Source of the DNA: a virus
Virus record (IMG/VR): IMGVR_UViG_3300045988_130114
Coordinates: 1-64,000 of that record
Direction: 5' to 3' (one strand)
Length of the DNA: 64,000 bases
A model generated the notes under the pieces. It was not told the DNA's origin, made no database searches, and was given only the letters and a program-made list of their open reading frames with translations. Position 1 is the first letter of the stretch, and each line of letters starts with the position of its first letter. Made by a program: the position numbers and the translations under genes. Shown piece by piece: positions 5,686-40,985 of this stretch.

Positions 5686-5931
5686 TCATTTTAATAAGTT
5701 GTTTCCAATTTTCGCCCATGAATAAGCTAATATACAACCAACAAGTAACATGATTAAAAGTTTTAAGTTTATAACGCTACCTTGAAAAAATAGCACCATA
5801 CCACCAAGAACCAAAGCTGTATATGTTAATTGTGAAAGATTAAAGAAATACCCTGCAAGCTTTTCCCGCCTGGTCTTGTCTTTCTCCTTTCCTTCTCTTT
5901 TTTCTTCTTGTCTTTCGCTCCAGCTACCCAT
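5686..5931 (-). CDS. small membrane protein (charged N-terminus, two TM helices)
   Basis: ORF track; EEKREGKEKDKTRREK followed by two hydrophobic helices. Confidence 0.55.
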   Translation of the reverse strand: MGSWSERQEEKREGKEKDKTRREKLAGYFFNLSQLTYTALVLGGMVLFFQGSVINLKLLIMLLVGCILAYSWAKIGNNLLK

Positions 5932-6060: not shown

Positions 6061-6209
6061 CCATGCGTTGGGTTGTACTTATTAAAATTAGAATTAATCA
6101 GAGGATTAAGATATAGAAAGCTGTGTAGGTCACAACCCCCTGCATGGCTTTCGCCTTTTTATCTCCGCATGAAGAAGTGCGGTACGTCCTCGAACGAAAA
6201 GACATTATT

Positions 6210-6911
6210 ATGGACAACATTCAGATTTTTAAGAATGAATCGTTTGGTGAAGTGCGAGTAGCCGGAACAAGTGAAGAACCATTATTCTGCTTGGCAGATG
6301 TTTGTAAAGTGCTTGAGTTAGGAAATCCCAGTCAAGTAAAAACAAGACTTTGTGGTGAGGTCATTACTAATGAGGTCATCCCGGACTCTCTTGGTAGACA
6401 ACAAGAAATGATTTTTATTAATGAAGACGGTTTGTATGACGTAATACTTGATAGTCGTAAGCCACAGGCTAAAACTTTCCGTAAATGGGTAACTAGTGAA
6501 ATCCTTCCTTCAATCCGCAAGCATGGCATATATGCTACCGACAATGTTATTGACCAGATATTGAATAATCCGGATTTCGGCATTGAACTTCTCACTAAGC
6601 TAAAAGAAGAACGGTCGGCACGCATTGAAGCAGAGAAACAGGTAGCAGTACTAACTCATGTCAATAAAACCTATACATGTACGGAAGTTGCTAAAGAATT
6701 GGGGCTTAAATCGGCAATTGAACTTAACAACCGTTTAAAAGAACTTGGCGTACAATACAAAGTTAATCAGACGTGGGTGCCATATACTAAATACGCTACT
6801 CTTGGCTGGTTTGATATAAAGCAAGAGGTTGCTGACAATGGGCATATTATCTACCATAGAAAGATTACCGGAATTGGTAGACAAGGTATCATTAATCTTA
6901 TTAATTCTTAG
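6210..6911 (+). CDS. BRO-N / KilAC (ANT) antirepressor
   Basis: ATG 6210. IQIFKNESFGEVRV...PLFCLADVCKVLEL..(Bro-N) and QAKTFRKWVTSEILPSIRKHGIY, then a KilAC-like C-terminus. Confidence 0.8.
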   Translation: MDNIQIFKNESFGEVRVAGTSEEPLFCLADVCKVLELGNPSQVKTRLCGEVITNEVIPDSLGRQQEMIFINEDGLYDVILDSRKPQAKTFRKWVTSEILPSIRKHGIYATDNVIDQILNNPDFGIELLTKLKEERSARIEAEKQVAVLTHVNKTYTCTEVAKELGLKSAIELNNRLKELGVQYKVNQTWVPYTKYATLGWFDIKQEVADNGHIIYHRKITGIGRQGIINLINS

Positions 6912-6949
6912 CTGATATAAATAAAGGGATGCATTTGCATCCCTTATAT

Positions 6950-7279
6950 TCATCTATACATCGCGGTGCAGCTTATAAATAAGGCTATAATAGACACGAT
7001 AAGAGAAAGTATCCCGGCTATTACTCCGATAACAGTCCAGTTGATAGGGTTTCGTAAATTGGGATTCTCACAAAGGTAGTGTTTTCCTTCATCGGTGGTT
7101 TTGGCATCTTCTACTGCTCCACCTTCCAGATATGCGGCTTTTACTAGTCCTTTCCTTTCAAGTGATCGTACGGACAAGTTGTAGACGTGCAAAGGAAATA
7201 CACAAGGGCACTGACCGTTGAACTTATCAACGATCCTAAGTGTCTCTTTTTCCTCCTTAGTGAGTTTTATTCGTTTCAT
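6950..7279 (-). CDS. tail-anchored membrane protein, last gene of the repressor operon
   Basis: C-terminal TM INWTVIGVIAGILSLIVSIIALFI; 4-nt overlap with the upstream gene. Confidence 0.55.
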   Translation of the reverse strand: MKRIKLTKEEKETLRIVDKFNGQCPCVFPLHVYNLSVRSLERKGLVKAAYLEGGAVEDAKTTDEGKHYLCENPNLRNPINWTVIGVIAGILSLIVSIIALFISCTAMYR

Positions 7280-7701
7280 AGATTTACTTTTAATTCTATT
7301 CCTGCTAAATCAAAATATATGTTCTGAAGTTGATTCAGATATTCTATTTGCTTAAAAACTCTGTTAGAGCGCATTACTCCATAGAAGTTAGTACGAGTAT
7401 TATATAATATCCAGAAATCTTCTATAGTCAATAATCGTTGTTCTTTTATTTGGAATTCATAATACTCGACATTAAATCCGCACTTTAACAGCAATCCTTC
7501 TGTGAGAGAAATAGGTTCTACCGTAGAAATAGGAACTTCGCCGTAAAAAGTCCCACCATTTACATGACATTCCAGGTACAAGGAATTAAGACTAATGGCA
7601 TGTACTTTGCATATAGTACCTGCAGGTATTTCAACTCCTACGTACTGGTAATCTTTCGATAGCTTTACATAGTTGCCTAACCTTAGTTCTTTTGTATCCA
7701 T
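7276..7701 (-). CDS. hypothetical soluble protein, second gene of the repressor operon
   Basis: ORF track; starts 14 nt downstream of the repressor stop; no motif recognised. Confidence 0.55.
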   Translation of the reverse strand: MDTKELRLGNYVKLSKDYQYVGVEIPAGTICKVHAISLNSLYLECHVNGGTFYGEVPISTVEPISLTEGLLLKCGFNVEYYEFQIKEQRLLTIEDFWILYNTRTNFYGVMRSNRVFKQIEYLNQLQNIYFDLAGIELKVNL

Positions 7702-7715
7702 AGCTTGCTATTGTC

Positions 7716-8000
7716 CTATCTGGTTTCTGGCTTTAGTTCAACATTCACGCTAACAGGGAACTCGTTTCCGCAGTGTGGGCATTTTACAGAATGGGCGTTT
7801 GAGGGAAGCTGCACTTCTTCTGGGGACGCGAATAGCTGCCACATGGGGACGTTGAGGGCGGTGGCTATTTTTTCAAGTGTAGCAGTTGTCAATGATTCAG
7901 CTGCAACCATTTGTCTAACAGCAGATAGGCTTACATTCATTTTATCTGCCAATTCTTGTTGTGTGTAATGTTTCTCTTTTAAAAGTTCCTTTATTCTCAT
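7716..8000 (-). CDS. XRE-family HTH repressor (CI/Cro-like) with C-terminal CxxC zinc-ribbon-like tail
   Basis: YTQQELADKMNVSLSAVRQMV..ATLEKIATALNVP is a classic HTH_3 motif; CPHCGNEF at the C-terminus; divergent from the 8172 operon. Confidence 0.8.
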   Translation of the reverse strand: MRIKELLKEKHYTQQELADKMNVSLSAVRQMVAAESLTTATLEKIATALNVPMWQLFASPEEVQLPSNAHSVKCPHCGNEFPVSVNVELKPETR

Positions 8001-8044
8001 AATTATCTTTTTGATTTCAAAAATACAGATTATTTATGAAGAAT

Positions 8045-8058
8045 ACAGTATATACTGT
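8045..8058. promoter_or_regulatory. operator-like perfect palindrome ACAGTATATACTGT
   Basis: 14-bp perfect inverted repeat in the divergent repressor / early intergenic region. Confidence 0.5.
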
Positions 8059-8108
8059 GTTAATTTATGCAAAAGAAATGGTATATTATGACTGTTTTAT
8101 TTGGTGAT

Positions 8109-8126
8109 ATGCAGTAAATACTGCAT
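8109..8126. promoter_or_regulatory. operator-like palindrome ATGCAGTAaaTACTGCAT
   Basis: 8+8-bp inverted repeat sharing the CAGTA-N2-TACTG core with 8045-8058; abuts a TCTTTG -7-like box. Confidence 0.5.
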
Positions 8127-8171: not shown

Positions 8172-8483
8172 ATGAAACGCTACAATTTATCAGAGATAAT
8201 GAAAAACGCTCACAGATCGTATAAGTATTCAGGCAAGAAGCAAGGCAAGACCTTCGGTGAATGTTTAAAGTCAGCATGGAGACTTGCCAAACTTCAATCT
8301 AACTTCACGGTAGAAGCGGTAAAAGAAAGAACTGATAAATACCTAGCAGAAAGACACGAAGCGATGAGCAAAACAGCTAAAGCTGCAATGCACGAAGGAT
8401 ACAATAACAAGAACATACCGGTATCGGCTTATTACAATGTAAATAGTACTGGTAGATTCGGTTCGCGCTACGTAGGTGATTGA
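8172..8483 (+). CDS. hypothetical protein
   Basis: ORF track; first gene of the rightward early operon. Confidence 0.5.
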   Translation: MKRYNLSEIMKNAHRSYKYSGKKQGKTFGECLKSAWRLAKLQSNFTVEAVKERTDKYLAERHEAMSKTAKAAMHEGYNNKNIPVSAYYNVNSTGRFGSRYVGD

Positions 8484-17781: not shown

Positions 17782-18627
17782 ATGAAGATGCAATCTAAGA
17801 TAGATTATTCCATAGCCTTACTTCGTAAATGCGAACAGATGGCACTTGATTATGACCCGGAGGATGGCTTTTACTTAGCGTTCTCCGGTGGCAAGGATAG
17901 CCAAGTCCTTTATCACCTTGCGAAGATGGCAGGAGTAAAATTTAAGGCTCACATGAACCTTACGAGCATCGATCCACCCGAAGTTATCCGCTTTGTAAAA
18001 CGGAACTACCCGGATGTGGAATTGATTAAACCAAAGATGTCTATCTATGATATGGCTTTAAAAAAACACTTATTACCTACAAGAACAATCCGTTGGTGTT
18101 GCGCTGAATATAAAGAGATGTCCGGTGCTGGCAAGGTTACCTTGATTGGCATTAGAAAAGCAGAAAGCGTCCGGCGCTCTAAGCGTGAAGAGATTGAAAT
18201 AAGCGGTCACAAATTTAGCGGCAACTTCGACCAATTCTCTGAACACAAAGAAAAGATGGTTACTTGCGTGGGAGGAAAGGATAAGATACTTGTTTCTCCG
18301 ATAATTCACTGGACTGATAGGGACGTATGGCAGTTTTTGAATGGGAATAGCATAGAGCATTGCTCGTTGTATGATGAAGGCTATAAGCGCATCGGATGTA
18401 TTCTCTGCCCAATGTCTAACTATAAGCAGAAGTTAAAAGATTATCAGCGCTTCCCCCATGTGAAACGTAAATGGATTCAGACCATACAAAAGTTGATTGA
18501 TGCCGAATATGTCAACCACAACTTTACCGATGCAGAGTTTGGCTTTTATTGGTGGATAAGCGATAAAGGTTTTGACCAATATTATGCAGACGAAGTACTG
18601 CAACAGAAAATAGAGTTTAACGTATAA
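17782..18627 (+). CDS. PAPS-reductase/DndC-like PP-loop protein (intact paralogue)
   Basis: AFSGGKDSQ, RWCCAEYK, GIRKAESVRR, SPIIHWTDRDVWQFL, YKRIGCILCP. Confidence 0.85.
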   Translation: MKMQSKIDYSIALLRKCEQMALDYDPEDGFYLAFSGGKDSQVLYHLAKMAGVKFKAHMNLTSIDPPEVIRFVKRNYPDVELIKPKMSIYDMALKKHLLPTRTIRWCCAEYKEMSGAGKVTLIGIRKAESVRRSKREEIEISGHKFSGNFDQFSEHKEKMVTCVGGKDKILVSPIIHWTDRDVWQFLNGNSIEHCSLYDEGYKRIGCILCPMSNYKQKLKDYQRFPHVKRKWIQTIQKLIDAEYVNHNFTDAEFGFYWWISDKGFDQYYADEVLQQKIEFNV

Positions 18628-21088: not shown

Positions 21089-21161
21089 GGTTGAATGGCG
21101 AAGTGATTAACGCAACGGTCCGCAAAACCGTTATTCGTGGGTTTGAATCCCACTTCAACCT
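21089..21161 (+). tRNA. tRNA-Cys(GCA)-like, deviant
   Basis: Hand-folded cloverleaf: acceptor GGTTGAA/TTCAACC, anticodon stem ACGGT/ACCGT, loop CCGCAAA, T arm GTGGG-TTTGAAT-CCCAC, discriminator U73. Deviations: C33, no GG in the D loop, T at position 56. Confidence 0.65.
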
Positions 21162-21237
21162 CAAAGATAGAAATAACAACCGAAGTACAAGGCGATACTG
21201 TGGATTTTCTAATAAACGTTTTACAGACAGCCATATT

Positions 21238-21308
21238 GCGGAAATAGCTCATTGGTCAGAGCGTTGGCATTCCAGCCAAAGAGTGGGGTTCGATTCCCTG
21301 TTTCCGCT
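21238..21308 (+). tRNA. tRNA-Gly(UCC)-like with a 6-nt anticodon loop
   Basis: Acceptor GCGGAAA/TTTCCGC (C2:G71, G3:C70, U73), D arm GCTC-ATTGGTCA-GAGC, T loop TTCGATT. The anticodon stem TTGGC/GCCAA encloses only ATTCCA. Confidence 0.65.
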
Positions 21309-21425
21309 CGAATGTCGTTCAAGCTGGCTGGTTGATTGGTATTATGGTAGATGTGCATAGTTCGATTTTATGCGTTACTCTGGTATCGGTCAATCTTACA
21401 GCGTGGGAAGACATGCAAATTTGTT

Positions 21426-21894: not shown

Positions 21895-23196
21895 ATGTTC
21901 CAAGGAACGACACCACCTGAAGTAAAACTGCTCCTTCAAGATATAATGAAAGGCGTAGAAAAGAAAGATGTTTTTATCGGATGTTCCGGTAATTTCACGA
22001 CCGACAAAATTATGTCCAACATGGGATATACTGTACATTCCAATGATGTAAGCCTATATTCTAAGCTAATTTCTGATCTGCTGCTTGACACAAATACAGA
22101 TATTGAAGTTGTAAATCCTGAATTACGTCTGGTTTTTGATACTTGGAAAGATACAAGATATAAAAATCTTGTTCAGGTAATGTTTGCCATGAGAGTATCA
22201 GGCTTTCATCAAAGAAAGAATGATTATCAGGAGGAAATGTTCAATTCGTTTATAGAGCAGGCTGACATTTATTATCACAATACCATATCGAAATTAGAAA
22301 AGGGTGCTTTGAATTTTAATATAAGCAGTTTCTTTTATGGCGATTTTTTTGACTTCCTAAAAAGTAAAAAAGGTAAGGGGATAGGTATTGCTTTTCCTCC
22401 CACTTATAAAGGAGGATATGAGAAGATGTTTAGCTATGTAGAAGATAGTTTTAGATATGTTCATGCTCCCTATAATGTATTTGACCCCAAAGAAGGTGGG
22501 GTGATGTTTAAATGTCTTCTTGAGAATGATGAAAACATCATCTATTCTGATAGATATTTCCAGGAAATAAACGACTTCCTTGTTGGTAAGATAAACTTGG
22601 GGCCTGGTAAGAATCCGATATACACTTATTCTAGTGTAAAGCGGGATAAGCATTATTACATTGAACGTGATAAAAATATAAAGCCATCATGTATTCATAT
22701 TTTGCCAATGGATTATGAATTTACAGATAGCACAGAAATATCAGCAAAGATATGCCCAGTTAGTGATGTGAACTACTATAAAGCATTTTACATGGCAAAT
22801 AAGGTTAACTATACAACTGGTGGGGACTTGGGATTGGTATTCATGGCTGATGGAAAAGCGTTCGGTTTTTCTTCTTTTAGCAAAAAACTTTCTACTCTTG
22901 AGCAGATTTTTATGCGAAGCGATTTTGTTGTAAACTCAAATACTCAGAGATTGAGTAAATTATTGATCATGCTTGTTAAGTCTCATAATGTAAGAATGCT
23001 GATTGCCCGAAAAATGGCTAACTACTACGATGGAGTGAAGACTACCGTGTACACAACAAGCCCAATTTCAATGAAATATAGAGGAGTATTTGATTTAGAA
23101 CGCCGAGATGAAGGCAAGCTAATGTATTCTGCTAATTTTTTAGATGATTCATTAAAGGATTTATATAGATTATGGTTGAAAAAATACAAGAAGTGA
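21895..23196 (+). CDS. methyltransferase-like protein (weak call)
   Basis: 433 aa; VFIGCSGNF (motif I-like) and AFPPTYKGGYE (DPPY-like); overlaps the ParB-like gene. Confidence 0.4.
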   Translation: MFQGTTPPEVKLLLQDIMKGVEKKDVFIGCSGNFTTDKIMSNMGYTVHSNDVSLYSKLISDLLLDTNTDIEVVNPELRLVFDTWKDTRYKNLVQVMFAMRVSGFHQRKNDYQEEMFNSFIEQADIYYHNTISKLEKGALNFNISSFFYGDFFDFLKSKKGKGIGIAFPPTYKGGYEKMFSYVEDSFRYVHAPYNVFDPKEGGVMFKCLLENDENIIYSDRYFQEINDFLVGKINLGPGKNPIYTYSSVKRDKHYYIERDKNIKPSCIHILPMDYEFTDSTEISAKICPVSDVNYYKAFYMANKVNYTTGGDLGLVFMADGKAFGFSSFSKKLSTLEQIFMRSDFVVNSNTQRLSKLLIMLVKSHNVRMLIARKMANYYDGVKTTVYTTSPISMKYRGVFDLERRDEGKLMYSANFLDDSLKDLYRLWLKKYKK

Positions 23197-38977: not shown

Positions 38978-39850
38978 TTAGGAAACTATTTCTCCAGTAT
39001 CCTTATTTAATATCAGATGGTATTTCTTTTTTTCTCCTATTTTAGTAGTGGCTTCAATGTCTAATATTACGTTATCTCCATCTAATGAATATGTGGATTT
39101 GTTGACTCTTATCTCTTCATCGGTGATGGGGACCTGCCAAATTAGATATTTATCATATCTATACATTGAAATGTCAACACACACAACCATATTGTCATAG
39201 ATGTATACCATATTATTGTAAGATATAGGTATGTAATTATTCCTTTCAATTTCTTTAACCCATCTTTCAGCGCCTGGATCATTATTCCCAATCGTCTGCT
39301 TTAAATCACTATCCAATACTCCAATTTCATAAATTCCTGTTCTTGCAGTTTTATAAATGGCAATGTATTCTCCATACCAATCTGCTATTGCTTCCGGATA
39401 GAAGATCGTTTCTTCAAAACCAGAATAATATTCTTTGTCAAAATATTCTTTTTCAACAACCTTCCCATCTTTTATTTTCAAGATAAATTTATGTGGGTGA
39501 TAAGCTATATCTGCGTATAAACTTACCAATATATAGAGATAATCATCCTTTTTCAAGGCACTTTGAAGGAAACACCCTTTGACTATGTATTCTCTCTTAT
39601 CTCCAAACCCAAGATCATGGGTATAATTTTCTGCTTTATCTTTGATGGTAAACACCTTGTTCCCTGATTCATCAATAGCCTCTATATAGTAATCTCCTTC
39701 AAAGATATAAGCTTGTAGTTTTAGATCATCTATCGGGATAGCACTATCGATTTGGTATTTTGGAAGATCTGGTTCATCTATAGGACTTTCATTTGAACTA
39801 CAACTTGTTAATAGAATTATTGCTATGATAAAAAATGAAATCTTCTTCAT
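38978..39850 (-). CDS. lipoprotein
   Basis: Signal peptide plus lipobox MKKISFFIIAIILLTSC; counter-oriented and AT-rich. Confidence 0.7.
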   Translation of the reverse strand: MKKISFFIIAIILLTSCSSNESPIDEPDLPKYQIDSAIPIDDLKLQAYIFEGDYYIEAIDESGNKVFTIKDKAENYTHDLGFGDKREYIVKGCFLQSALKKDDYLYILVSLYADIAYHPHKFILKIKDGKVVEKEYFDKEYYSGFEETIFYPEAIADWYGEYIAIYKTARTGIYEIGVLDSDLKQTIGNNDPGAERWVKEIERNNYIPISYNNMVYIYDNMVVCVDISMYRYDKYLIWQVPITDEEIRVNKSTYSLDGDNVILDIEATTKIGEKKKYHLILNKDTGEIVS

Positions 39851-39863
39851 AATTTGTTGGTTA

Positions 39864-40985
39864 TTATTCTCTCATTGCTATTTTAAGCGATTCTTCAAGT
39901 CTATCCGCATATTTGAATATGTCATCTATGCTATCAATTTGAATCCAGTCGCAACTTTTGTAGTTATCTACTGGTATTCCTATTTGCTTCTTCCTAGTTC
40001 CAATAGAAATACGACATATCCAATACCATTGGCTGTTGTCTAAGCTTATAACGAAGTAACTTTTATAGTCTGTATAGGTGATTCGTGAAGCATCTACATT
40101 ACGTCTAAGTATGCTTCTCACAATGTTATAAGCATCCATTTCCTCTTGTGTAGTGACTATCCCTGCTTCCTTGTCCATATAAACTACTCCTTCAGGTAGT
40201 TTGTTTTCTGCATTTTCTTTGGGGAGATTAGCTAAATTACTAGAAAAATTAGTTGTGTCTTCGACCTGTTCGTCATTTTTCATTGCTGTATTAAGCCTTT
40301 CAGCTATGATATCATTTATTACAATAGACATTGACTTTTTTACAAGTGGGGTAAACATTTCAACTACCTTTTGTGTGATTTGCCCAGTTGTATATATTTG
40401 TTTTGCAAAGAATCTAACAAAATCAGATGTAGGAGATTGTATTTCTTTGTTGAAAATTTCCTTTATTTCCGTTGTGTATTTTAATTCATTTGCTGTGCTA
40501 AGAACATTGTCTTCATTGTAATAAGATTTGTGGAACTTTTTTAGTTGTTCTATGTCTGCATCAGATAGATCTAGCATATTTACAACTAAGAATGGCCTTT
40601 CATCCATGATATTAACCTTCTCCAAATCAGTATAGAAACGGTATTCTATGCCATTGGTGAGAACTCCAAAGCGAGACTTAGAAGCTACGAAATATTTTTG
40701 TAGTTGGGTGTCATGCAGATTCAAGTCCTGCTTGCAATGCTTACACTCTATAAGAAGTATCGGGTTTTCGTCCTTCATTATAGCATAGTCAATCTTTTCT
40801 CCCTTTTTTCTGATTAAGTCACAGTCCATTTCCGGAACAACTTCGAAAGGATTAAAGACGTCATACCCTAAAGAAGCTATCAATGGCATTATGAAAGCAT
40901 TTTTTGTGGCTTCTTCTGTAGATATGCTATCTTTTTGTTTTTTTATGCGGTCTGACAGTTGTAAAATTTGATCCTTGAAATCCAT
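39864..40985 (-). CDS. HsdR-N-type (type I restriction R-subunit N-terminal domain) PD-(D/E)xK nuclease-like protein
   Basis: TEEATKNAFIMPLIASLGYDVF...KIDYAIMKDENPILLIECK....FGVLTNGIEYRFY. Confidence 0.75.
   Translation of the reverse strand: MDFKDQILQLSDRIKKQKDSISTEEATKNAFIMPLIASLGYDVFNPFEVVPEMDCDLIRKKGEKIDYAIMKDENPILLIECKHCKQDLNLHDTQLQKYFVASKSRFGVLTNGIEYRFYTDLEKVNIMDERPFLVVNMLDLSDADIEQLKKFHKSYYNEDNVLSTANELKYTTEIKEIFNKEIQSPTSDFVRFFAKQIYTTGQITQKVVEMFTPLVKKSMSIVINDIIAERLNTAMKNDEQVEDTTNFSSNLANLPKENAENKLPEGVVYMDKEAGIVTTQEEMDAYNIVRSILRRNVDASRITYTDYKSYFVISLDNSQWYWICRISIGTRKKQIGIPVDNYKSCDWIQIDSIDDIFKYADRLEESLKIAMRE

Follow-up and report, generated by a model that had tools for sequence, protein, structure and literature searches.

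Do the two small genes that follow a presumed phage repressor gene form a functional pair, or do they only share its operon? The question is raised by a 64,000-nucleotide (nt) stretch of viral DNA, positions 1 to 64,000 of IMG/VR record IMGVR_UViG_3300045988_130114 (the window), in which a gene for an XRE/CI-type protein (A) is followed on the same strand by genes for a soluble protein (B) and a tail-anchored membrane protein (C). A sequence-only reading had likened this locus to the cI-rexAB operon of phage lambda and proposed that B and C are a two-component defence system of unknown type, a sensor and a membrane effector co-transcribed with the repressor. Our comparative analysis suggests a different arrangement. 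As the best explanation of the whole, the locus is likely the lysogeny-maintenance (immunity) operon of an uncultured temperate Bacteroides siphovirus, and the tight spacing of B and C likely reflects packing into one operon, not obligate partnership. B and C are separable, independently assorting genes that are not co-adapted and do not make up a matched sensor-effector pair.

The pair proposal, stated in full, makes B the soluble sensor and C the membrane effector of a RexAB-like abortive-infection system of two components, carried on the repressor transcript. It draws on the position behind the repressor, the 4-nt overlap of the two genes, the combination of a soluble with a membrane protein and the recurrence of the B-C order in several sibling phages. 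Comparable pairs, a soluble and a membrane protein side by side, are known from lambda cI-rexA-rexB, Sbash gp30/31, Butters gp30/31 and CarolAnn gp43/44, and these are likewise repressor-linked and presumably expressed in the lysogen (PMC7542560). Against this stands the distribution of the two families. The survey took in 79 viral loci with B and 80 with C, and members of the A, B and C families were called in every one. C lay downstream in only 6 of the 54 distinct contexts of B, and B lay upstream in only 5 of the 79 distinct contexts of C, so that the co-occurrence across other phages expected of a pair was not borne out; each gene stands mostly alone elsewhere, and six viral contigs carry both genes 22–24 kb apart. 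The partners also change behind conserved alleles. Two C alleles that are 100% identical stand one with B (locus L090 in our numbering) and one without it (L091), B alleles that are 95–96% identical have either C or a 220-aa (amino acid) signal-peptide protein, SP220, as their partner, and a C gene that is 90% identical is paired with a B only 50% identical. C is, moreover, often paired with a paralogue, C', instead of with B. The few shared contexts and the identical alleles with different partners together argue that B and C are not a pair.

The known systems differ in kind as well. RexAB-like pairs keep strict synteny in the Butters case that was examined, and all of their membrane partners have four transmembrane helices (PMC7542560), whereas here synteny is lost and C joins a single tail anchor to a predicted winged helix. 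Since neither B nor C is similar to RexA, RexB or DUF4747, no four-helix partner is present and synteny is not kept, the locus is not a member of the RexAB family. The comparative data thus largely refute the RexAB-like model, which we regard as very improbable; the cI-rexAB label of the sequence-only reading, with one transmembrane helix in place of a polytopic channel, and its assignment of sensor and effector are both given up.

All three are nonetheless real genes rather than chance open reading frames (ORFs). The coordinates given earlier for them, the 14-nt gap between A and B (7702–7715) and the 4-nt overlap between B and C (ATGA, 7276–7279) agree with the ORF list and the sequence. First searches returned 34 homologues of B and 26 of C, the named ones only from Bacteroides fragilis and Parabacteroides, and family alignments showed clear conservation of both proteins over their full length, from which B and C are taken as genes. 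An ORF at 6735–6953 on the minus strand was dropped as a gene; it lies antisense within the convergent Bro-N/ANT gene, spans the terminator-like hairpin and overlaps the stop codon of C. The three genes form a small antisense island, the rest of the window being coded almost wholly on the plus strand.

A, B and C look like one transcription unit because they share a single promoter-like element and a single terminator and are separated by only the 14-nt gap and the 4-nt overlap; the earlier placement of B and C in the repressor's transcription unit is upheld to this extent. The promoter-like element, TATTTTTG, stands upstream of A and follows TAnnTTTG, the -7 consensus of Bacteroides promoters, and no such element occurs between A and B or before C. 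With 1.4 occurrences per kb of the window, this motif is common and taken alone is weak evidence; two further immunity variants have a matching element in a comparable position (TACCTTTG and TACATTTG). A scan for sigma-70 promoters gave 13 sites against 12.9 expected from shuffled sequences, the model being the wrong one for Bacteroidetes. The hairpin that follows C is the probable end of the operon. Rfam yielded no match over the locus, and megablast of the locus against deposited phages gave only one irrelevant match of 119 nt. The phage has no close relative in culture; the best named match of its portal protein is in a Porphyromonas prophage, at 32% identity.

What, then, brings B and C to this place? 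Sibling phages carry many different genes in the position that B and C occupy here. The operons found behind A are A-B, A-B-C, A-B-C'-C, A-B-SP220, A-B-Fic, A-B-Fic-Panacea-x139, A-B-2TM, A-x58-C, A-Fic-C and A-x94-C, so that no fewer than nine combinations of cargo occupy the stretch from A to the convergent ANT gene. The 2TM protein has about 210 aa and two transmembrane helices, and x94 is lipoprotein-like. The Fic cargo matches PADLOC PDC-S04 (E=2e-95), which is a candidate defence system and not a validated one, and downstream of a gene with a SocA_Panacea antitoxin domain lies a 139-aa ORF. The sets of cargo are combined freely with four immunity types. By comparative analysis the stretch between A and the Bro-N/ANT gene is shown to behave as a hypervariable, reassorting cargo slot. 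Its conserved flanks and its reassorting cargo, which includes Fic (PDC-S04), the Panacea pair and membrane or lipoprotein-like genes, mark it as a repressor-linked accessory or defence hotspot. The earlier expectation that the site behind the repressor is a location for such genes therefore agrees with what the siblings carry. The locus is of a known kind; B and C are two new single-gene families within it.

Several established hotspots offer a comparison. Functionally, the locus parallels the cI-linked hotspot of lambdoid phages and mycobacteriophage immunity cassettes. The antiviral hotspots of P2 and P4 (Rousset et al. 2022, PMC9122126) and the cassettes of the mycobacteriophage cluster N likewise have conserved flanks and reassorting cargo, and their cargo, like that of the present slot with its Fic (PDC-S04) and Panacea-domain genes, includes defence or toxin genes. 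Here the phage lineage and the host (Bacteroides/Parabacteroides) are different, and most of the cargo families have no known function. The region downstream of cI, where bstA and rexAB are found, is an established mosaic hotspot, and bstA expression is high during lysogeny (PMC8585504). BstA of the Salmonella prophage BTP1 is, like B and C, a single accessory gene 3' of a repressor and presumably on its promoter (PMC8585504), and it would be the best model for the organisation of B and C as independent single genes. The resemblance is one of organisation: BstA, an abortive-infection protein that is large and soluble, has a KilA-N-type domain and its cognate aba element, and B and C resemble it neither in sequence nor in fold.

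At the other flank of the slot stands gene A. It matches HTH_3 (PF01381, E=2e-11) above the gathering score in Pfam, and its PHROG matches are transcriptional repressors or regulators. With only 94 aa and no match to Peptidase_S24 in Pfam, A would be a short repressor, differing from the lambda CI subtype with its LexA-like autocleavage domain. Many Rha, KilA-N, Bro-N and ANT genes lie near A, and together with the missing S24 domain they make control of A by antirepressors a reasonable inference. Near the integrase end of a 69-kb sibling (L214, 13897–14331), a gene encodes a protein of 144 aa that contains HECGH, a motif of the HExxH type, and has no match in Pfam; it could be a metalloprotease relevant to repressor control.

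The evidence for what A does comes from its control region. The 171 nt between A and the divergent plus-strand genes hold two related palindromes 66 nt apart. Sibling phages have four main N-terminal helix-turn-helix (HTH) variants of A joined to one common C-terminal tail, and each variant comes with its own pair of palindromes at about -58 to -44 and -126 to -108 from the ATG, so that the position is kept and the sequence changes. The MRIKELL variant, which is that of the window, has palindromes with CAGTA half-sites; MRIREAI has ACAAGTTATAACTTGT, MELRVKE has ACGATATTATAATATCGT and MERIISL has AATATT(A/G)TAATATT. When operator and repressor covary among heteroimmune relatives, this is classically the mark of an immunity repressor. 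Comparative analysis thereby shows A to be the specificity determinant of the divergent control region, and given the covariation and the integrase of a sibling phage (below) A is very probably the phage immunity repressor, as the sequence-only reading had assumed. The C-terminal tail of A, VPMWQLFASPEEVQLPSNAHSVKCPHCGNEFPVSVNVELK (window 7716–7890, about residues 58–94 of A), contains a CPHCG half zinc-ribbon, and its roughly 35 residues are nearly invariant across the four HTH/immunity variants (homologues in L008–L100). A nearly invariant tail next to a variable HTH points to a recombination breakpoint inside the repressor gene. The tail may serve in dimerisation or as a target of antirepressors.

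Sibling genomes also speak for a temperate phage. An uncultivated virus genome (UViG) of 69.4 kb, 3300014543_000137, carries A-B-C and has a tyrosine integrase as the terminal gene at its far end. The integrase scores above threshold for Arm-DNA-bind_5 and Phage_int_SAM_5, and its Phage_integrase match reaches 26.3 bits against a cut-off of 27.1. In several contigs the A-B-C cassette lies about 6 kb from one end and the gene at the window's right end lies 3.5–8.5 kb from the other; the integrase at the sibling's far end implies that the window ends a few kb short of an integrase gene. Relatives were also found in bacterial DNA, within an assembly of B. fragilis and, in a complete Parabacteroides chromosome, at 3.44 Mb; the B. 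fragilis isolate with assembly GCA_044874945.1 has A-B and shares the immunity type of the window.

We turn to B, for which neither its sequence nor its fold leads to a characterised protein. B is small, acidic and soluble. It matches phrog_10066, a family of unknown function, with E=3e-18, and gave no match in Pfam, NCBIfam or PADLOC at E<=1; a profile search against PDB sequences returned nothing significant (best E=0.23). The AlphaFold model made with the family alignment (predicted local distance difference test score, pLDDT, 84) has an N-terminal SH3-like barrel at about residues 1–63 followed by an alpha/beta domain, and the conserved motifs are ELRxGN, EPIPLTEELLxKCGF and LHQLQNIYFxLTGxEL. 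Foldseek against the PDB found only generic SH3/KOW barrels and spurious SH3-SH2 superpositions (root-mean-square deviation >10 Å); in BFVD the entire two-domain fold was found only in uncharacterised phage proteins, with template modelling (TM) scores up to 0.72–0.83. An ImmA-like protease was considered for B and dropped, there being no HEXXH motif.

B occurs in many genomic settings, and regulators are common among its upstream neighbours. It follows complete HigB-HigA pairs, HicB and a separate 69-aa XRE gene, often with a 4-nt overlap and with partners confirmed by Pfam. Such HigB-HigA-B loci are L058, L060–L070, L082 and L167, HicB-B is found in L081, and the overlap of B with the antitoxin gene by 4 nt recurs among them; a Bacteroidales metagenome-assembled genome has the HigB-HigA-B arrangement as well. 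These settings raise the possibility that B is a partner of the DNA-binding regulator upstream, whether as a co-regulator, a modulator or a third component of repressor or antitoxin modules. Among the 50 distinct viral contexts that have an upstream gene, 37 show a gene for a DNA-binding regulator or an antitoxin immediately before B, often at distances from a 4-nt overlap to 14–39 nt, although these 37 contexts amount to only about four independent lineages of roughly ten. The four upstream lineages (the A family, the 69-aa XRE, HigA and HicB) are unrelated to one another, L167 repeats the HigB-HigA-B order, and the tail of A is conserved across immunity types. Tripartite toxin-antitoxin-chaperone systems provide a precedent. 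However, A operons that have no B (A-x58-C and A-Fic-C) keep the same A tail, and B is found behind unrelated genes, with ORFs of 67 aa, 125–136 aa, 512 aa and 349 aa upstream, and in early regions with no adjacent HTH gene. Repressor and toxin-antitoxin operons are, besides, units that are active in a prophage, so morons are to be expected there, which is the simplest reading of B's position. We therefore consider a dedicated regulator partner unlikely. A narrower version, with A-B as a type II toxin-antitoxin pair, was dropped: A occurs without B in the two operons just named, and B turns up after non-HTH genes and after HigBA pairs that are already complete. In L071 the 512-aa ORF that precedes B had been labelled a terminase by eye; Pfam did not confirm this and the label was withdrawn.

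Outside these settings, B is found among the small early-region genes of the cultured marine phages Cellulophaga phi19:1 and Tenacibaculum JQ. This gives some room to a further possibility, that B is an anti-defence or host-takeover protein with an early-gene function that has come to lie in the repressor operon by chance in this lineage. Its small, acidic and soluble nature, its highly mobile position and a fold shared only with uncharacterised phage proteins would suit such a role. On the other side, a place on the lysogeny transcript would mean constitutive production of an anti-defence factor in the host, the libraries searched showed B to resemble no known anti-defence protein, and the distant homologues of B (25–36% identity) lie not in phages but in chromosomes of Chitinophagaceae, in a conserved cluster with stand-alone receiver-domain proteins. 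We rate this reading slightly below that of a regulator partner. The Chitinophagaceae cluster itself consists of two small families of unknown function, B (sometimes in two copies), a stand-alone Response_reg protein and a small transmembrane protein (L168, L169, L171, L177–L180, L187 and L188, from Flavisolibacter and other Chitinophagaceae); receiver domains make up 9 of the 108 neighbour proteins, and small soluble winged-helix proteins occur near B homologues in L171, L179 and L190. B is most likely an autonomous soluble accessory factor, with a part in defence, anti-defence or host modulation.

C is a different kind of protein. Its AlphaFold model (pLDDT 87) has a winged helix at residues 1–72 and one long hydrophobic helix at residues 81–108, in line with the single C-terminal transmembrane helix predicted before. 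All top Foldseek matches in the PDB were winged helix-turn-helix (wHTH) proteins of the MarR, PadR or ScpB type (probability up to 0.99, E>=0.0096, TM score 0.4–0.55), and a profile search against PDB sequences gave a weak match to a MarR protein (E=0.027). No match was found in Pfam, NCBIfam or PADLOC, tblastn with C against deposited phages gave none, and a literature search on tail-anchored winged-helix prophage proteins returned nothing relevant. The earlier statement that neither B nor C shows a recognisable motif stands as regards defence families, of which no match was found, and does not stand otherwise: B belongs to phrog_10066 and has an SH3-like and alpha/beta fold, and the N-terminal 75 residues of C are predicted to fold as a winged helix.

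An exhaustive profile search (E<=0.001) found 420 cluster representatives of the C family at 50% identity. The representatives listed are nearly all 100–115 aa long and match end to end, a fixed architecture with no fusions. The best-conserved parts are a juxtamembrane Y..NPxLxNPxxW motif and a Cys at the end of the transmembrane helix; the recognition helix is poorly conserved. The C protein of the window ends its helix with LFISC at residues 100–104 (Cys104), followed by a 5-residue tail. A motif of lipobox form, L-[FLI]-[VI]-[ASG]-C, is present in 117 of 143 members, with a median of 4 residues after it (range 1–8). The residue at position -1 was left unforced in a further count and was A, S or G in 109 of the 124 Cys-containing members against a helix-wide background of 0.37; since the sequences are related, the binomial figure for this is only indicative. 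Overall the motif is present in 82–87% of members and the Cys absent in 13–18%. The cytoplasmic domain is basic, with a median isoelectric point (pI) of 8.7, and C would act at the inner membrane, on its cytoplasmic side.

In a second phage lineage, whose C has 61% identity, C always comes after a gene for an ANT-domain protein of the Bro-N, Rha or KilA-N kind. It is there either a single gene or part of a C'-C tandem, formed by two subfamilies, and it lies in an accessory island of the tail region with HEPN/SecB, Gp49 (HigB-like), SNIPE nuclease and leucine-rich-repeat genes. One such island, in Parabacteroides CP173709.1 (L199, 6389–7601), contains a triplet of HEPN, a 127-aa protein and SecB that is reminiscent of toxin-antitoxin-chaperone systems. 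The tandem is common; C' (110–117 aa, with '...NY-DEVL...LTxKGxAY') comes first and then C (L004–L007 5666–6318, L014 6423–7088, L099 5665–6330). This arrangement suggests that C' and C may form hetero-oligomers.

What C does may be approached from its fold or from its location. From the fold, C could be a membrane-tethered transcription regulator, ToxR-like or released by proteolysis and possibly gated by the lipoprotein machinery, that controls prophage or host genes and is no defence protein. The predicted winged-helix fold, with wHTH proteins as all top Foldseek matches and the MarR profile match, points in this direction, as do the basic cytoplasmic domain, the architecture held over the 420 representatives, the lipobox-form Cys in most members and the tandem paralogues, which suggest dimers. 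Yet the residues of the recognition helix are poorly conserved while the juxtamembrane motif and the helix end are conserved best, a periplasmic sensor domain is missing, the Cys is absent from some members and the fold matches are statistically weak. The regulators ToxR, CadC and TcpP resemble C in topology only, an N-terminal cytoplasmic winged helix, predicted in the case of C, and then one transmembrane helix; C differs from them in its 1–8 residues after the Cys in place of a periplasmic sensor, in having no Trans_reg_C signature, in its length of about 105 aa and in being phage-borne. We hold a tethered regulator to be a serious minority possibility, and on the whole doubtful. From its location, C may instead be a superinfection-exclusion or defence-type protein, acting alone or with its paralogue C'; this assignment is tentative, somewhat short of probable, and we place it ahead of the regulator.

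The end of the helix invites a more specific proposal. Bacterial lipoproteins carry the lipobox [LVI][ASTVI][GAS]C, and the transmembrane end of C has the same form, likewise after a hydrophobic helix and a positively charged juxtamembrane segment. C resembles a lipoprotein signal peptide with an 80-residue cytoplasmic winged helix at its N-terminus. The likeness is in the form of the motif only: in C it follows a folded cytoplasmic domain of 80 residues and almost no mature protein comes after it, so that the Cys, at position 104 of 109, is not in an N-terminal signal peptide and has no mature domain behind it. The C family might be a new class of prophage-borne single-gene membrane protein, a winged helix tethered by an N-terminally extended lipoprotein signal peptide, with Lgt and LspA acting on the C-terminal lipobox. 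We give this idea little credence, about as little as a regulator partnership of B. If it were true, C would be locked in place by lipid, or intramembrane proteolysis would be primed to release the winged helix, or a hydrophobic signal-peptide fragment would be released; envelope lipoprotein processing would then be coupled to superinfection exclusion or to control of prophage or host genes.

Taken together, we favour the following model of the immunity operon. A would bind the two palindromic operators in the 171-nt divergent control region; when bound, it would keep the rightward lytic genes off and autoregulate its own leftward promoter, as suggested by the covariation of operators with HTH variants. 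The cargo genes would ride on the A transcript and so probably be made in lysogens, for which bstA and lambda rexAB are the precedent. In the slot, B and C would be two independent single-gene modules: B a mobile soluble module that has repeatedly landed 3' of autoregulated repressor or antitoxin genes, and C a protein at the inner membrane, alone or with C', presenting a winged helix of nucleic-acid-binding type on the cytoplasmic face.

Some observations weigh against this model. Regex scans of the window detected no recombinase signatures, so that the temperate status rests on the sibling genomes. Co-transcription of A-B-C and expression in the lysogen are inferred. B and C match no known defence model in PADLOC, Pfam or NCBIfam, which leaves the earlier proposal of a defence system, and any role in defence or exclusion, with location as its argument. 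The presence of B in early lytic regions and in chromosomal response-regulator clusters argues that it is not specifically a gene for protection of the lysogen. Finally, the 4-nt overlap of B and C also fits translational coupling, and the two proteins may interact locally and facultatively.

Table 1. Features of the putative immunity operon and its flanks, in window coordinates
Feature	Position	Strand	Remarks
A, 94-aa XRE/CI-type protein, very probably the immunity repressor	7716-8000	-	HTH_3 domain and conserved C-terminal tail of ~35 aa
B, 141-aa soluble protein, phrog_10066	7276-7701	-	SH3-like beta-barrel and alpha/beta domain
C, 109-aa tail-anchored membrane protein	6950-7279	-	predicted winged-helix domain and transmembrane helix
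Distal operator-like palindrome ATGCAGTAAATACTGCAT, adjoining the divergent early genes	8109-8126	strand-neutral	CAGTA half-sites
Proximal operator-like palindrome, core ATACAGTATATACTGT, just upstream of the A promoter element	8042-8061	strand-neutral	
Bacteroidetes-type -7 promoter element TATTTTTG	8018-8025	-	ends 17 nt upstream of the ATG of A
Intrinsic-terminator-like hairpin	6924-6945	-	9-bp stem with 5 G-C pairs, T-run; directly 3' of the C stop
Bro-N + ANT (KilAC) antirepressor-type gene, convergent	6144-6911	+	conserved right-hand flank of the cargo slot
103-aa gene with no family match	8172-8483	+	first gene of the divergent transcription unit in the lytic direction

Elsewhere in the phage, a separate minus-strand ORF at 5686–5931 encodes 81 aa; its product is charged at the N-terminus and contains two hydrophobic segments, and relatives (L005–L007) have a DUF6722 gene of 80–81 aa in a comparable antisense position; the 81-aa protein may be another lysogen-expressed membrane moron. 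Two further antisense genes (38978–40985, minus strand) stand just before the gene of a 1362-aa tail protein. The product of one has 373 aa, an HSDR_N domain of restriction-endonuclease-like type (E=2e-14) and a weak match to mad2 in PADLOC (E=5.5e-5); that of the other has 290 aa and gave no match. This is probably a second accessory or defence island. The window starts within an ORF with NPNTP-type repeats that ends at about 345 and is followed by some 760 nt with no long ORF; near window position 1150 several viral contigs come to an end, independent of one another and unequal in length, and positions 1–1150 are a probable prophage end or attachment site. At 21089–21309 on the plus strand are a tRNA-Cys(GCA) gene and, next to it, a tRNA-like gene whose anticodon loop is aberrant. 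A PAPS-reductase-domain protein (17782–18627) and a fusion of a DAM-like methylase with a phage GNAT-like domain (21895–23196) may serve DNA modification or anti-restriction.

Bacteroides and Parabacteroides are dominant gut bacteria, and to our knowledge very little of their phage-defence repertoire has been tested experimentally. Adjacency and overlap alone can mislead as evidence for a two-component system, and B and C each merit testing on their own. The C family is large, of fixed architecture, unannotated and absent from Pfam, and its odd C-terminal lipobox-like motif is directly testable. The hotspot has clean limits, set by the repressor with its operators and, at the opposite end, by the convergent ANT gene, whatever the immunity type and cargo, and the slot could be mined, like the P2 and P4 hotspots, for new lysogen-expressed genes.

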